NCBI GenBank assembly: GCA_041487555.1
Contig: JBGPNL010000001.1
Coordinates: 1 to 25,714, forward strand
DNA length: 25,714 nucleotides
DNA from: Minisyncoccia bacterium
GTDB lineage: Bacteria > Patescibacteriota > Minisyncoccia > UBA6257 > 2-01-FULL-56-20
Reading direction: 5' to 3'
Below are positions 3,927 to 25,165 of this stretch, in pieces. The notes under the pieces are model-generated. The model was not told the origin of the DNA. It did not search any database and was given only the letters and a program-made list of their open reading frames with translations. The position numbers and the translations under genes are program-made. The number at the start of each line of letters is the position of its first letter. The stretch's first letter is position 1.

Positions 3927-3962
3927 GCTAACGAGCTAACGAGCTAACGAGCTAACGAGCTA
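3927..3962 (+). repeat. Tandem 8-mer (GCTAACGA)x4.5 running into the rodA start codon
   Basis: Direct count: four full units (3927-3958) plus GCTA, whose last A is the A of ATG. Confidence 0.9.
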
Positions 3963-6207: not shown

Positions 6208-12948
<6,741 letters not shown>

Positions 12949-19759: not shown

Positions 19760-19784
19760 AAAACCCCGATATTGTGTCGGGGTT
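19757..19784 (-). terminator. Terminator between convergent gatB and pup-like gene
   Basis: AACCCCGA-T-N5-G-TCGGGGTT stem with a plus-strand A run upstream (U tract for the minus strand). Confidence 0.7.
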
Positions 19785-19789
19785 CATGG

Positions 19790-20005
19790 TTATTGCCCAC
19801 CTTTTCCGGTGTGCTTTTTGATGCGGATCTTTTTGCTTCCGCGGCGGTTGCGCCTTTCTTCGATCTTGCGCAGGAGATCTTTGCGCTTCTTCGTTGTTTC
19901 TTCGGTTTGCTTGTCGGGCGGTTTCTTATCGGGCGCCGCCGGTTTTTCCGGCTCTTGTTTCGGAGGCGGAGCGGGCTCTTTTTTCGGTGTTTGTTCTGCG
20001 TGCAT
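19790..20005 (-). CDS. pup: Pup-like protein modifier (71 aa, C-terminal GKGGQ)
   Basis: MHAEQT start, TEET..DLL and terminal KGGQ parallel actinobacterial Pup (MAQEQT, TEETDDLL, QKGGQ); GAGGTG SD; lies 16 nt downstream of a PafA-like gene. Confidence 0.8.
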   Translation of the reverse strand: MHAEQTPKKEPAPPPKQEPEKPAAPDKKPPDKQTEETTKKRKDLLRKIEERRNRRGSKKIRIKKHTGKGGQ

Positions 20006-20021
20006 CGTTCACCTCGCTAGA

Positions 20022-21590
20022 CTAGAGAAGACCTAATCTCTTTATAGCAGCCTTGCTTTTCTCGTCAAGCTGCGAGAGATCGTTCGCGCATGGATCGGGA
20101 AGGCTTATGCATCGCCAATCCGCCTCCGACGCCGATTCGCGGGCCTTCGCGGTGAACTTGATCGTCCGCCAGGCCGTCGCATCGAAATCGTATCCGAGCT
20201 CGCTCAACCTCTCGACGATCTTCGTGCGCAATGCGGCCCGCGTCCGCGGGGGAGTGGTGAGCGCTCTGCGTATCTCCGCGTCCGTTGTCAGCCGCTCAAA
20301 ACTTTCGAGCAGGCCATAGTAGGTGCTTTCACGGAAATCGATATCGTGGAACTGGAAATTGGTTTCATGGATTTTCGCGTCGGAGAGCGACGATATTCCC
20401 TGGGAATCCATTTGCTCTTCGATGAGCCATTCAAGCGTCGGCCAGTCCAGGATGCCGATAAGTTCGCGGGGGTCCCGCTCAAGAAGCGTGAGAGCCCGTT
20501 TCCACTCCGCAAGCAGCTGGGCGTGCTCCCAGAGCTCGTTCTGTTCGACATATTTTCGGCACATTTCGTAATAGCGCCAGAGGATATCCCTGACCGTACA
20601 TCGTACGCCGGTCACAAGCTTTATTTTGATGGTTCCCTCTTTGTTCATCGCGAGTTTCTTTATGAGCGTTATAAAGCCGTCGTTCTGATCGAGAAGATCG
20701 GCCGCAAGCGTGGGATCGAAGTCGTTCGACTCAAGCAGTTCGAGTACGAGCGAGCTCACGCCTACGGTGAGCCAGAGGCTTTTCTCAAGCATATGGCTGT
20801 CGCCGCAGATCACGTGCAGCCTGCTGTACACGCTTTTTGATTCGTCCTCGACAGAATCATCCACCCGCAAATTAATGAGGGAGCGTTGGTCTCTCCTTGT
20901 CGTCCCATCCGCGTGGAGGCCGCCGATGTTCATAAATCGGGGAGAAACGGCGAAAAGGAAATCGGGCTCACCCGAAGCGGCTTGCTGGGGAACTATTCCG
21001 CCGGATCCGGCGAAAAGATATCGTGCGGCGAGGAATAGCGCCCATGACTGCGCCTTTATGTGCATGGGTTTCTTATCCTCTTTGTATCTCAGCTGGTCGA
21101 ACAAGCTCCGGGTGATCCTGTAATTTTCGTGGAATGCCCTGGTTGAGAGAAAATCCGGCATGCTCATATGCGGCTGTCCCGTTATCTGGTTGCTCGGCAT
21201 GATGCTTGTATTTTTTTTGAAGATCTTTATCCCCGGAAGGCCCTTCACCTTAGATAGTTTGTTCCAGGCATCAAGGACGTCGTTCAAAAGAAGATCGATC
21301 GCTTTATCATAGGCGACGATCTCGATGGGATCGGTGCATTCCGGCGTGCATATTTCGAGGAGCGTGCCCATGTCCCGGTACGCCATGCCGCCGTTCCGGA
21401 GTATCAATCTGCCGCCGTTTCCCAGGTTTTTCCTGCTGTCCGGGGTCATGGAGAGGTCGCTCACGATATCGAGAAGCGTGTGGAAACAGATATGATTTGC
21501 CGACCCATTCGGGGAAGCGTCGATCGGATCGCCGTCATGATCGTAAAAGAGAACATCCAATTCGTGTTCTATGCCCATTATGCGCGGCAT
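20022..21590 (-). CDS. pafA: Pup ligase PafA-like (carboxylate-amine ligase fold)
   Basis: MPRIMGIEHE, LRNGGMAYRDMG, TPEC, FHENY, TTR..RSLINLR, RLHVICGDS, LDW, FHDI, PPRTRAALR. ATG 21590 chosen because GAGGAG lies just upstream (track start 21659). Ligase versus Dop identity inferred from the DMG motif and shorter N-terminal loop. Confidence 0.8.
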   Translation of the reverse strand: MPRIMGIEHELDVLFYDHDGDPIDASPNGSANHICFHTLLDIVSDLSMTPDSRKNLGNGGRLILRNGGMAYRDMGTLLEICTPECTDPIEIVAYDKAIDLLLNDVLDAWNKLSKVKGLPGIKIFKKNTSIMPSNQITGQPHMSMPDFLSTRAFHENYRITRSLFDQLRYKEDKKPMHIKAQSWALFLAARYLFAGSGGIVPQQAASGEPDFLFAVSPRFMNIGGLHADGTTRRDQRSLINLRVDDSVEDESKSVYSRLHVICGDSHMLEKSLWLTVGVSSLVLELLESNDFDPTLAADLLDQNDGFITLIKKLAMNKEGTIKIKLVTGVRCTVRDILWRYYEMCRKYVEQNELWEHAQLLAEWKRALTLLERDPRELIGILDWPTLEWLIEEQMDSQGISSLSDAKIHETNFQFHDIDFRESTYYGLLESFERLTTDAEIRRALTTPPRTRAALRTKIVERLSELGYDFDATAWRTIKFTAKARESASEADWRCISLPDPCANDLSQLDEKSKAAIKRLGLL

Positions 21591-21623
21591 GTGTCTCCTC
21601 TCGTGTGTAAAAATTCTGTCCTT

Positions 21624-21652
21624 AGTGTAGAACCTATCCAAAAAGTAGTCCA
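21624..21652 (-). promoter_or_regulatory. Putative sigma70 promoter for pafA-pup
   Basis: TGGACT-N17-TACACT on the minus strand, 33 nt upstream of ATG 21590. Confidence 0.45.
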
Positions 21653-21693
21653 TATGCATACTTTTGAGACGGGCTTCGGGCCATTGTTCCCGG

Positions 21694-21724
21694 AAAAGAA
21701 AAGAGGCACCTAAGAAGGTGCCTC
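21694..21724 (-). terminator. Intrinsic terminator overlapping the dop stop codon
   Basis: Minus strand GAGGCACC-TTCTTA-GGTGCCTC followed by TTTTCTTTT. Confidence 0.7.
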
Positions 21725-23338
21725 GGTGTTCAGGGCTTTGATCAATTCATAGAGGCTGTCGCTCGTTTCGACAAGATCCCCGATCATTCGCTTGCTGCCG
21801 AACCAGGGGTCGTAGTCCAGTATGTACGCATTGGAAGAGAGATGATCTCTTGCAGCCAGTTTTCCGGGGCCGGTGTAATAGAGCGTGCCCCAGGAAAGAG
21901 AGAGTATTTCGTCAGGAAATTTTTTTGCTATTTCCCCGCCGAAATAGGCGCGTGAATCGGTCGGCGGATGCGTCATTGCGTGTTCTATCTCCGCTTCCGT
22001 GACGATGCCGAGGGGCGTGCCCACGCCCGCGATCGGGCCGTCCGGAAATCCGTTCTTTTCGAGGTCGAAATAGGTGCCCTCGTCCGGGTTCATGTTGTGG
22101 TACTCGAGCGATTCCAGGTGGATGTCGCTTTTTGAAGCACCGGATTCCTTCACGAGTTCGAGGTATTCTTTTTTTATCGCGAAATCGAGATAGAATTTCA
22201 GGCGGCCGGGATCGGAATCAAAAAGGTCGAGGATAAAACCGAGTTTTTCGACGGCGTCGCGGAATGTTTCATTTCCCGTGTCATCGACGTATTGTTTCAT
22301 CGAAGAGAAGAATGCCCGTTGTATCTCGAGGGCGGAAACATCCCGTTCTCCGGCAAGTTCGATCACCCGTTCTTTTCCGGTGAGATCCCGCGAGATGGCG
22401 TGGAACGCCTTTATCGGATCACAGAGGGATAGGGACGGAAGCGGGTAATTTTCCGCGAGCATCTTGAGGAATAGCGCGGTTATTCCGTAGGACAGATATA
22501 TCGACCACGGAGCGATGAGCGCGTCGCCGCAGATCACGTGCAGTCTTCGGTATTTTTCCCTGTCGGCATAGGGGCGGTCGCGGGTATTGATCAACGCGCG
22601 ATAGCCCGTTGTTTCGAGGCCGCGCAGTTCGCTTATGAAATCGGCTCTTTGAAAGAGCTGGTACGAGCAGGGGTTGATGCCGCACTCGGACCCGACCTTG
22701 CCGCTCCCGCCGTAGATCCTGCTTACGAGAAATGCGAGCCAAGTTGCGGTTCTCTCCGAACTTCCGTACTCACCGGTGAGTTCTGTGAAAAGATCGGGGG
22801 GCAGGAGGTAGTTCTCGTGGCATGCCCAGCTCGGATGCTCGAGCGGCCCCGCGCCCCTGTACGCCCATCTTTTCGCCTTGATCCCGGATGAATTATTTTT
22901 GCATACCAGGATCGGGTCGTTCTCAAGGCCCAGTTTTTTCGTCGCTTCCCGCCGCATGATCTCGATGATCCGTTCGCTCGCTTTTTGCTGAAGCAGCAGT
23001 TCCTTCGGATGAGTGCATTCGGCGGTAGAGATCTCCGGGTGAAGCATGTCGACATATATGCGCATGCGATTGGGAAGCCTGTGGCCGGTGAATCCGCCGC
23101 AGCGCCTTTCCTCGATCTGCCGTTCATGAAGATCGATCGCGGTATCGATGTTTTTTTCTCCGCGGAATCTATGCGGGTCGAATTCTTCGGAATCTCTTGC
23201 TCCGTTGGATCTCCCGGCGGCGGCGACCATCGCGTACGGCACTTCGAGCTGCATAAATCGATCGCTGTAGTACAAGCTGTTCGTGTGGTATTCATTCTCG
23301 ATGCCGAAAAGCATTCGCCAACTTTTATTGTCGGGCAT
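21710..23338 (-). CDS. dop: Pup deamidase/depupylase Dop-like
   Basis: FGIENEY, long N-terminal loop, IYVDMLHPEISTAEC, KNN, CHENYL, GSGKVG, QRADF..GLETT..LINTRDRPYADREKYRRLHVICGD, YHNM; GGAG SD. Confidence 0.85.
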   Translation of the reverse strand: MPDNKSWRMLFGIENEYHTNSLYYSDRFMQLEVPYAMVAAAGRSNGARDSEEFDPHRFRGEKNIDTAIDLHERQIEERRCGGFTGHRLPNRMRIYVDMLHPEISTAECTHPKELLLQQKASERIIEIMRREATKKLGLENDPILVCKNNSSGIKAKRWAYRGAGPLEHPSWACHENYLLPPDLFTELTGEYGSSERTATWLAFLVSRIYGGSGKVGSECGINPCSYQLFQRADFISELRGLETTGYRALINTRDRPYADREKYRRLHVICGDALIAPWSIYLSYGITALFLKMLAENYPLPSLSLCDPIKAFHAISRDLTGKERVIELAGERDVSALEIQRAFFSSMKQYVDDTGNETFRDAVEKLGFILDLFDSDPGRLKFYLDFAIKKEYLELVKESGASKSDIHLESLEYHNMNPDEGTYFDLEKNGFPDGPIAGVGTPLGIVTEAEIEHAMTHPPTDSRAYFGGEIAKKFPDEILSLSWGTLYYTGPGKLAARDHLSSNAYILDYDPWFGSKRMIGDLVETSDSLYELIKALNTEAPS

Positions 23339-23385
23339 TTATTTCTCCGTATGGGTCAAAAGGCTCCTAGTACTATATAACGGCA

Positions 23386-23445
23386 AACCCTCCTTCGCCA
23401 ACCGCTCCGCTAAAGCCTCGCGGCTCAAGAAGGCTAAGGAGGGTT
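23386..23445. repeat. Nested palindromic element between arc and dop
   Basis: 10-bp terminal inverted repeats AACCCTCCTT / AAGGAGGGTT enclosing CCGC..GCTAAAGC..GCGG. Confidence 0.65.
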
Positions 23446-23455
23446 ATTTTTTCAG

Positions 23456-23489
23456 AAAAATAAAAAGAGGGTCCGTATGAACCCTCTTT
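23456..23489 (-). terminator. Intrinsic terminator after arc
   Basis: AAAGAGGGT-N8-ACCCTCTTT stem with minus-strand U runs. Confidence 0.7.
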
Positions 23490-23494
23490 GGGCA

Positions 23495-25165
23495 TTAGCT
23501 GAAGCCGATCTTCGGCCTCGTCTCTTTCGAGAGGTAGTTGATATCGTACTCTCCCTCGATGCCTTCGGTCGAAAGCATATCCGCAAGTACCTTTTCATTC
23601 GTGGGCAGCTGTTCGTTCTCGTGGATTTTTTCCCGGAGCGCGTTCATGAGGTCTTCGGGCTTAAGCCCTTTTTCCTCTTTGTTGCCGTCTCCGATCCAGC
23701 GATTATAGGCGAAGAGCCGCGCGCGCTCGGCAAGGCCGGCGAGCAAGGCTCCCGAAACGAAGAGGTCTTTGAAGCCGAGTATCCTCGACTTTCCCAATTG
23801 CCGTACCTCGATGAGCTGGTTCGCGTCCGTTTTCGGATCGAACATTGTTTCAACGCAAGGCAGAATGAGGCCCTCGCGGATCGCTTCCGCGGCGGTCTGT
23901 CCCGTGCGGGTAAAGCAGCTCGGATGGAGCGGCAGGGTCGCGGGAAGGTTCAACTCGAGGATCTGGGTCGCGCCTTCTTTCCCGGGGCGGGGAATGCGCT
24001 TCTTGAAGTAGAAGCGGCCGTCCCGGATTACCGCCGGATCGATGAGGTCGTCGCGATTTTCGGCGGCGATCAGGAGTATTCTCCGCTTTTCGAGGTGAAA
24101 TCCGCCGACAAGCGAATTCCACTGAGCGACGTGCGTATTGATCCATGGTGCGTTGTCGCTCATTCCCCGGTGGGGGAACATGGCGCCGAATTCGTCCCAA
24201 AGGATGACCAGCAGGTCGCATTCGGGTCCCGACTCGAGGATGAGATGGCGCAGGGCCGCCTCGGTATTTCCCAGCCATTTGTCGAGTAGTTCCGAACCGC
24301 GTACGAGGATGAAGCCAACCTTATATTCCTCGCCGAATCGTTCGTGGCATTTTTCGCGGAGTTCGCTTGCGATGCATTCCGCAAGCAGGGTCTTGCCGCA
24401 TCCCGGGGGGCCGACGAGCCGGCCGCAGACGATGAATGAATCTTCGGTCGCGACCTTAAGGAGGAATTCCTTCGCTCCCACGGGGTCGAGCAGGGGATTG
24501 ATCGCTTCTTCGCGAAGCTCTTTGATCTCCTTTTCGAGGCCGCGCACCATCGCGAATGTCTTTTTCGGATCGTAGGTGTCGAGCTCTTTTCCGGATGTTT
24601 TAATGCCGATCTTTTTTACCGCTATGCCGCCGCGCACAAGGAGATGATTACCTTGCTTCAACTCGGCGACGACAAGCCCTTCCGCCGGCAGGACCATTTG
24701 CAGTTCGCCCCGGCAGTTCTTCACTGCGAGCAAATTCCCGTGGAGCGAATCGAACGGCAAAAGCTCGCCCAGCTCCGCCAGATCGGCGCTTGCGTGAACG
24801 ACAACCTTGCCCGAAGCGATCCACAGCGTCTGTCCGCTCTTGAGGGAGTCGAGGTCGATATCTGTTCCGTCAAAGTGGGATTTCGCAAGCACATATACAA
24901 GATTCGCACTGCCGCCTTCGATCTCGATGACCCTCTTTTCTTTGTGGATGATCTTTACAAAGTAAGCGAAAGACCACGGAGCTGCCGCGATCTCGTCAAG
25001 TTGTTGGGAGGCTTCTTGAAGCCTGTCCGCAAGTTCGTCGATGATCTTTTCCTGCTCTTCCAGTTTTTTTTCGTTTTCTTTATTCGCTGTGCCGAGCAGC
25101 TTGAGCTGCATCCGCAAGGCCGCGATCTTCTGTTCCAGTTCCGGTCGATCGTTCGGAGGAGCCAT
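23495..25165 (-). CDS. arc: ARC/Mpa-family proteasome-associated AAA+ ATPase
   Basis: N-terminal coiled coil ending AAAPWSF, interdomain region, Walker A GPPGCGKT, pore loop GSELLDKWLGNTE, Walker B ILWDE, SRH AENRDDLIDPAVIRDGR, VSGALL and ENEQLP (Mpa ENEDLP); GAGGTG SD. Confidence 0.88.
   Translation of the reverse strand: MAPPNDRPELEQKIAALRMQLKLLGTANKENEKKLEEQEKIIDELADRLQEASQQLDEIAAAPWSFAYFVKIIHKEKRVIEIEGGSANLVYVLAKSHFDGTDIDLDSLKSGQTLWIASGKVVVHASADLAELGELLPFDSLHGNLLAVKNCRGELQMVLPAEGLVVAELKQGNHLLVRGGIAVKKIGIKTSGKELDTYDPKKTFAMVRGLEKEIKELREEAINPLLDPVGAKEFLLKVATEDSFIVCGRLVGPPGCGKTLLAECIASELREKCHERFGEEYKVGFILVRGSELLDKWLGNTEAALRHLILESGPECDLLVILWDEFGAMFPHRGMSDNAPWINTHVAQWNSLVGGFHLEKRRILLIAAENRDDLIDPAVIRDGRFYFKKRIPRPGKEGATQILELNLPATLPLHPSCFTRTGQTAAEAIREGLILPCVETMFDPKTDANQLIEVRQLGKSRILGFKDLFVSGALLAGLAERARLFAYNRWIGDGNKEEKGLKPEDLMNALREKIHENEQLPTNEKVLADMLSTEGIEGEYDINYLSKETRPKIGFS

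Follow-up and report, generated by a model that had tools for sequence, protein, structure and literature searches.

A pupylation-type gene cluster without detectable proteasome genes in a small lineage of Paceibacteria

What purpose do protein tagging and unfolding serve when nothing is degraded? To our knowledge, pupylation is the only bacterial ubiquitin-like conjugation pathway that has been studied in depth, almost entirely in Actinobacteria, and its distribution in the Candidate Phyla Radiation (CPR) widens this question. The locus described here lies at positions 19790–25165, on the minus strand, of a 25,714-nt stretch of DNA from a Minisyncoccia bacterium; this whole stretch is called the window. 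It consists of four uninterrupted open reading frames (ORFs): arc, a dop-like gene, a second PafA/Dop-family gene, and the gene of a small tag. The window is contig C1 of genome G000 (976 kb, 138 contigs, 88% complete). We consider it likely that the cluster encodes a working, proteasome-independent tagging system of the pupylation type, belonging to a small lineage of Paceibacteria. This kind of system is already known, proteasome-less forms included. The CPR host lineage, the tag-after-ligase order, the basic tag family invisible to the existing models (five loci), and the conserved [I/L]GF tail of the unfoldase are new. Our literature search found no paper linking pupylation with CPR, Patescibacteria, or Parcubacteria.

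Four loci were orthologous to that of the window. Two belong to the closest relatives with this locus type (G001, 75% complete; G003, 95% complete in 20 contigs), one to a Liptonbacteria metagenome-assembled genome (MAG) from NCBI (L062), and one to an ENA contig (L063). The order arc–dop–ligase–tag was kept in all five loci, G000 included. An earlier note, made from the DNA letters only, had described an intact Pup-type conjugation cluster with strongly divergent enzymes, a basic tag, and a non-HbYX ATPase, in a CPR-type genome with no adjacent 20S genes. These claims were borne out by the hidden Markov model (HMM) searches, AlphaFold models, Foldseek matches to Mpa and PafA/Dop, and genome comparisons given below.

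The tagging components and the missing proteasome

The tag gene (19790–20005, minus strand) encodes a basic, Pup-like peptide of 71 residues, which the current genome annotation misses. A Pro/Lys/Glu-rich N-terminal half is followed by a basic, helix-like stretch, KKRKDLLRKIEERR, and by the C-terminus IRIKKHTGKGGQ. The net charge of the last 35 residues is +13, as compared with –4 to –12 in canonical Pups. The gene directly follows the second ligase-family gene in all five loci, and its product ends in GGQ (G000 and L062), SGQ (G001 and L063), or TGE (G003), with G-Q or G-E right at the stop codon. A last residue that alternates between Gln and Glu is typical of Pup (PMC3511204). The ratio of nonsynonymous to synonymous substitution rates was 0.22–0.34 with saturated synonymous sites, indicating purifying selection. 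This selection, together with the conserved position, the strong Shine–Dalgarno (SD) sequence GAGGTG upstream, and the hairpin with a T-run downstream, establishes the tag as a real gene.

The tag family escaped the available models. PF05639 and TIGR03687 (Pup) gave no match to any of the five tags at E values up to 10, and the hhalign probability was 4.8%; the positive control, a Paceibacteria Pup from locus L030, reached 70.1 and 59 bits. Likewise, PF20513 and NF033388 (UBact) did not match the five tags at E values up to 10, and hhalign showed no relation; Nitrospira UBact scored 76.8 and 80.8 bits as the control. A word-index search with the tag among 5.8 billion protein clusters returned zero matches. 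The five-tag profile, run against 1.84 billion proteins, found two real matches only, both of 71 residues and both from the five loci, in addition to one spurious low-complexity protein. The basic tag and the ARC with an IGF tail were seen in five loci only, in or near the family of the window.

The arc product (556 residues, 23495–25165, minus strand) was assigned to the Mpa/ARC-type AAA+ unfoldases by HMM, AlphaFold2 (AF2), and Foldseek. It scored 68.6 bits with PF00004. The best NCBIfam model was TIGR03689 (pup_AAA), with 194.1 bits over model positions 12–488 of 512, well under the equivalog cut-off of 504.75. The motor motifs are intact, including Walker A (GPPGCGKT, 252–259), Walker B (ILWDEF, 321–326), and the aromatic–hydrophobic–glycine (Ar-Hb-Gly) pore loop (KWLG, 296–299). 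The AF2 model, built on a 32-sequence alignment, had a mean predicted local distance difference test (pLDDT) value of 83. Its 30 best Foldseek matches in the PDB were Mycobacterium tuberculosis Mpa (E ~1e-33 over ~500 columns), followed by eukaryotic Rpt subunits at ~1e-20. Only three close ARC homologs were present among the 5.8 billion protein clusters; actinobacterial ARCs came next, at ~30% identity.

The defining parts of Mpa/ARC proteins are a coiled coil, a double beta-barrel of the oligonucleotide/oligosaccharide-binding (OB) type, and an AAA domain with the Ar-Hb-Gly pore loop; the coiled coil is the Pup receptor in Mpa (PMC8755798). The equivalent segment of the window ARC is a long N-terminal helix predicted by the AF2 secondary structure (residues 7–59, 24989–25147, minus strand). 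The following beta-rich region (residues 65–186, 24608–24973, minus strand), delineated by the AF2 strands and by the full-length Foldseek alignment to Mpa, is consistent with two OB barrels as in Mpa/ARC. The Pfam OB-domain models gave no match on ARC.

The dop-like gene (21710–23338, minus strand) encodes a predicted deamidase/depupylase of 542 residues. The product scored 279.4 bits with Pup_ligase (PF03136; gathering cut-off, 25 bits). Its best model was that of Dop (TIGR03688), with 233.4 bits against 203 for PafA, below the Dop equivalog cut-off of 492.3. The PafA/Dop motifs, defined in the literature as GhExE, a catalytic Asp on a beta-sheet cradle loop, HENY, and RLH..GD (PMC7947786, PMC3511204), appear as GIENE (12–16), Asp97 in YVDML, CHENY (173–177), and RLHVICGD (265–272); GLETT is found at 240–244. 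An insert of 70 residues, the length of a Dop loop, separates GhExE from the catalytic Asp, as compared with 24–55 residues in PafA-like sequences. The enzyme scored 204 bits to M. tuberculosis Dop and 117 bits to Corynebacterium glutamicum PafA. In the C20 tree, it shared a clade with actinobacterial Dop (SH-aLRT 97). Sequence score, insert, and tree alike characterize this first enzyme as Dop-like.

The second PafA/Dop-family enzyme, the presumed ligase, has 522 residues (20022–21590, minus strand). Its ORF reaches 21659 (545 residues), and the start is probably the ATG at 21590, because GAGGAG precedes this codon and the G001 ortholog starts there. Pup_ligase matched with 201.1 bits, again over the 25-bit gathering cut-off. 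The motifs are GIEHE, Asp96 in YRDMG, FHENY, and RLHVICGD. All the invariant columns of a 34-sequence Dop/PafA alignment, among them the glutamates of GhExE, the His and Tyr of HENY, and the Arg of RLH, were kept, as was the nearly invariant catalytic Asp. The AF2 model (pLDDT 87; predicted template modeling (TM) score 0.91) matched the PafA–Pup complex 4BJR best (E 5e-29), with Dop structures close behind. For 4BJR, 7OXY, and 4B0R, TM scores were 0.73–0.77 and E values 1e-26 to 5e-29, whereas the next fold class, gamma-glutamyl-cysteine ligases, reached only 1e-7.

No 20S genes adjoin the cluster. PF00227, which covers 20S and HslV, had no match anywhere in G000, nor in G001 and G003, nor in G002 and G025, two genomes whose Pup-ligase clusters are divergent. 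Since PF00227 scores some CPR alpha subunits only weakly, we built a CPR-tuned profile from 14 sequences of PrcA and PrcB, of which CPR loci supplied 12 and a Nitrospira locus 2. This profile found both subunits of the positive control G031 (222 and 175 bits) and nothing in G000, G001, G003, or the closed genome G348.

Missing or undetectably divergent 20S genes in incomplete MAGs would also explain these negatives. The completeness of G000 and G001, the weak PF00227 scores of some CPR alpha subunits, and the lack in G000 of ClpP and FtsH, which G001 and G003 have, would agree with such an oversight. We rejected the missing ClpP and FtsH as a true trait of G000, as their presence in both relatives points to an incomplete assembly. 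The proteasome-less claim is therefore based on the relatives and on the locus structure rather than on G000 alone. G003 is 95% complete and also has no proteasome genes, and the CPR-tuned profile found nothing where its control succeeded. Furthermore, prc genes adjoin ligase genes in eight of nine Paceibacteria genomes with both families, and none was present at the five loci. The ARC has no docking motif either. An overlooked proteasome is thus highly improbable.

The proposed pathway and its alternatives

From these components, we infer the following course of events. The Dop-like enzyme would deamidate the C-terminal Gln of the tag to Glu. The second PafA/Dop-family enzyme, to which we assign the ligase role by elimination and context, would activate this Glu with ATP and couple it to lysines of target proteins. 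The ARC hexamer would then bind the tag through its N-terminal coiled coil, thread the disordered, Pro-rich N-terminal half of the tag through the pore, and unfold or disassemble the tagged protein. The Dop-like enzyme could later strip the tag from proteins. Without a 20S particle, the tagged protein may be remodelled or disassembled, the latter having been proposed for C. glutamicum ferritin, or it may be passed on to another protease. In actinobacteria that lack the proteasome, ARC is retained without its docking motif and the enzymes are more divergent (PMC3511204), and ARC-dependent ferritin disassembly without 20S has been proposed for C. glutamicum (PMC8223512).

Besides the incompleteness of G000, several observations weigh against a working tagging system of this type. 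Apart from the C-terminal G-[Q/E] and a brief LL..I stretch, no sequence homology of the tag to Pup or UBact was detectable. The second enzyme scored 149.2 bits with the PafA model (TIGR03686; equivalog cut-off, 551.3) and 137.7 bits with the Dop model, and its PDB sequence matches to PafA and Dop were equal. The C20 tree placed it outside the Dop clade and the LG+G4 tree within a Dop-like group; a union with the Dop clade was not rejected by the approximately unbiased (AU) test (p 0.72). Actinobacterial PafA is separated from Dop by an insertion after the catalytic Asp, by alpha-loop residues, and by Arg185 (Hecht et al. 2020, PMC7947786). At these positions, the insertion after the Asp, the Gly, and the TTR followed by Arg look PafA-like in the G000 enzyme; the insertion is missing from its G001 and G003 orthologs, and elsewhere the residues match Dop or neither enzyme, so that the picture is mixed. 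The sequencing runs matching the locus were low-depth DNA only, in a search that covered any run type and was not aimed at RNA. Lastly, the supposed complementarity of an acidic ARC coiled coil and a basic tag failed, as net charges did not correlate across 22 loci (Spearman –0.12, p 0.61). Co-evolution was rejected at the level of net charge; the coiled coil is mildly acidic in this lineage (about –2 to –4) and equally so in actinobacteria with acidic Pups.

Two further claims of the earlier note stood in part. The PafA-like ligase was supported as a member of the Pup_ligase family by score, fold, and motifs; the disagreeing trees left its identity as PafA to inference. The distinct variant was supported by the basic tag, the IGF-like tail, and the gene order. 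The loss of prcBA and of the docking motif and the divergence of the enzymes, which the note had also counted, are already described (PMC3511204).

The long branches and the tree-dependent placement of the second enzyme would fit a decaying or repurposed relic. In such a cluster, the second enzyme would be no protein ligase; it would act as another depupylase or as an amidoligase on a different substrate. The small basic protein, instead of being conjugated, might bind nucleic acid or regulate ARC. A tag that is recognizable neither as Pup nor as UBact and the patchy occurrence of the system (4 of the 25 family genomes, counting G000) agree with this. We nevertheless regard it as improbable, since five diverged loci share all four genes, intact and in synteny, and the catalytic residues are kept. 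In addition, purifying selection together with G-Q or G-E just before the stop codon is hard to explain without C-terminal chemistry.

The tail of ARC bears on the partner of the unfoldase. ARC ends in ...KIGFS and has no GQYL/HbYX docking tail with a penultimate Tyr. The last residues (545–556, 23498–23533, minus strand) are predicted to be disordered (pLDDT 41), and the I-G-F tripeptide is at 23501–23509. [K/R/E]-[I/L]-G-F was kept in the seven ARC homologs of the subfamily, the other ends being LGFQ, IGFKPID, IGFTK, IGFFQSKS, LGFTSKKQ, and IGFQPSRTKSPK. Because 1 to 13 variable residues follow it, the motif is conserved and yet is not a C-terminal carboxylate motif.

This tail is the starting point for another explanation, in which ARC docks to a different self-compartmentalized peptidase, most plausibly ClpP. 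The tripeptide would act in the manner of the IGF/LGF loops in Clp ATPases, giving a Pup–ARC–ClpP degradation pathway. The motif in seven of seven ARCs, of the loop type rather than of the carboxylate-dependent HbYX type, would fit, as would the disorder of the tail and the GLGF of the Clp-type ATPase beside arc in L062. ClpP itself is present in G001, G003, G329, and 38 of the 41 genomes of the order. However, this near-universal presence gives no specific phyletic link to ARC, which occurs in 6 of the 41. ClpP probably also has a partner already, a 428-residue single-ring AAA_2 ATPase with an LGF loop and a homolog in G000. Three residues are weak evidence, and the motif could be what is left of a decayed G-Q-Y-L. 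We therefore take docking to ClpP to be unlikely. The fuller proposal, that ARC swapped its docking tail for a ClpX-like [I/L]-G-F and delivers polybasic-tagged proteins to ClpP, has a still slimmer chance; if true, it would be a natural hybrid in which the Clp protease system is joined to the ubiquitin-like Pup pathway.

An orphan ClpP was considered as support for ARC–ClpP docking and was rejected. None of the 41 genomes of the order, with or without ARC, has ClpX (TIGR00382), and a ClpX-sized ATPase with an LGF loop exists; thus, the absence of ClpX gives no specific support. This ATPase, of the AAA_2/ClpB_D2-small type with a GLGF loop, lies beside arc in L062 (6565–7851, minus strand) and has a homolog on contig C7 of G000 (8122–9084). 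In these bacteria, it may serve as the partner of ClpP.

A proteasome-independent tagging system of this kind would have several uses. Being compact, with four genes and a tag charge opposite to that of Pup, it is a natural test of which Pup features are read by the enzymes and the unfoldase, the candidates being C-terminal chemistry, helix hydrophobics, and charge. A system with a basic tag may also provide an orthogonal tagging pair. The conserved IGF-like tail offers a concrete hypothesis on an alternative protease partner.

Setting of the cluster and its spread in Paceibacteria

The cluster is flanked by housekeeping genes, with miaA upstream and a convergent gatB downstream; an rpoB–rpoC fusion, rplK, rpsF, and ssb are farther off. 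The relatives are MAGs named Candidatus Paceibacteria or Candidatus Liptonbacteria, and genome sizes in the group are 0.5–1.3 Mb. On these two grounds, the assignment of the host to the CPR holds. The neighbourhood miaA ... arc–dop–ligase–tag ... gatB recurs in G003 and in the Liptonbacteria MAG; therefore, the cluster belongs to a CPR chromosome and is not a misbinned fragment. Near-identical short contigs were found in three sediment DNA metagenome runs from three studies, at 2–5x depth with junctions not bridged, and they show that the locus is present in several sediment samples. A reading as a defence system was discarded: PADLOC gave generic AAA matches for ARC and none for the enzymes or the tag.

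Three terminator-like signals were seen on the minus strand. A hairpin with a T-run directly past the tag stop codon (19761–19785) marks the end of the cluster, convergent with gatB. A strong terminator-like hairpin with a T-run follows arc (23464–23489), and another strong hairpin with a T-run overlaps the end of dop (21703–21724). Promoter-like sites precede arc and dop. In view of the hairpins after arc and at the end of dop, the four genes may not form one obligate transcript; the cluster may be transcribed in more than one unit, or attenuated.

All four cluster genes have SD sites, namely GAGGTG (arc and the tag), GAGGAG (the second enzyme), and GGAG (dop). Among the housekeeping genes of the window, most (rpoBC, tmk, gatB, orf995, orf2444, and others) show no SD site and carry a TATAAT-like box 6–7 nt before the ATG; from their upstream sequences, these genes look leaderless. 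The contrast in SD usage could reflect a foreign origin of the cluster or a different translation mode. Two other features of the window were recorded. The genes rpoB and rpoC form one fused ORF of 2246 residues (6208–12948, plus strand), with all the Rpb2 and then all the Rpb1 domains in frame; it sits between mltG (YceG) and rpsF, outside the usual rplL context. A tandem octamer, CGAGCTAA, fills the 30 nt before the ftsW start codon (3932–3961, plus strand).

Among 401 sampled Paceibacteria genomes, 30 had Pup_ligase, 30 had proteasome-family genes, and 8 had both; 22 of the 30 ligase-bearing genomes gave no proteasome match. Intact, vertically inherited Pup-type clusters thus occur in ultra-small CPR bacteria, mostly without a detectable proteasome. 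The same-order relative G031 carries arc–dop–prcB–prcA–tag–pafA, and its prcB–prcA pair makes the proteasome-less state of the window lineage look like a loss or a separate acquisition. Paceibacteria tags are diverse; besides canonical Pup (…EEFVKSYVQRGGE, 70 bits with Pfam Pup), there are further acidic tags and the basic type of the window locus.

Several observations were made at other Paceibacteria loci. ARCs ending in G[Q/H]YL were found at nine loci (L025, L030, L031, L037, L045, L049, L053, L059, and L060, belonging to G025, G072, G088, G177, G277, G314, G348, G381, and G396). No proteasome gene was detectable in any of the nine genomes, one of which (G348, 923 kb) is closed. Where Paceibacteria do have a proteasome, their ARCs lack the tail with a penultimate Tyr. 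In Actinobacteria, the opposite pattern has been described. In several Paceibacteria, the usual pair of Dop and PafA is replaced by three to five paralogs of the Pup_ligase family, partly in tandem, at L037, L047, and L053–L059 (G177, G281, G348, G365, and G381). A 549-residue ORF with no Pfam match (L053 of G348, 7321–8970, minus strand) lies between ligase paralogs in a canonical-Pup cluster. In G002, which belongs to the genus of the window, a very different cluster sits beside miaA (L023, 4567–9494, minus strand). It has two long-branch ligase paralogs, a candidate acidic tag of 48 residues ending in EEGE, and an ARC with only 69 bits to that of the window. This contrast points to replacement or very fast divergence within the genus.

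Comparison with known systems

The closest parallel is the proteasome-lacking Corynebacterium type, which has the same four parts (arc, dop, pup, and pafA) without prcBA. There, too, ARC is kept without its C-terminal proteasome-interaction motif, and the enzymes are more divergent (PMC3511204, PMC8223512). The window cluster differs in its CPR/Paceibacteria host with a genome of less than 1 Mb and in the position of the tag gene, which follows the ligase gene, whereas corynebacterial pup directly precedes pafA. It also differs in the strongly basic tag, undetected by Pup models, and in the conserved [I/L]GF motif of the ARC tail. With actinobacterial enzymes in general, its enzymes share only ~25–35% identity and score far under the equivalog cut-offs.

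The canonical Mpa/ARC–Dop–Pup–PrcB–PrcA–PafA system shares with the cluster the ARC domain plan, the Dop and PafA/Dop-family paralogs, and a small, probably disordered tag ending in GGQ. Here, however, 20S and the GQYL tail are absent, the tag is not sequence-homologous to Pup, and the genes stand in another order. Other Paceibacteria loci with Pup_ligase differ from the window in carrying canonical Pup or other acidic tags, often with an ARC that ends in G[Q/H]YL.

UBact, of Nitrospirota and other Gram-negative phyla, resembles the window tag in being non-actinobacterial and in combining a Pro-rich N-terminal half, a basic C-terminal half, and a T-G-E or G-Q end. The three Nitrospira UBact genes that we examined end in ...RYRQRTGE. 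In 2017, Lehmann et al. reportedly also listed UBact loci for some Parcubacteria-type candidate phyla. Unlike the window locus, Nitrospira loci include prcB and prcA, and the UBact models, which give ~77–81 bits on Nitrospira UBact, give nothing on the window tag family.

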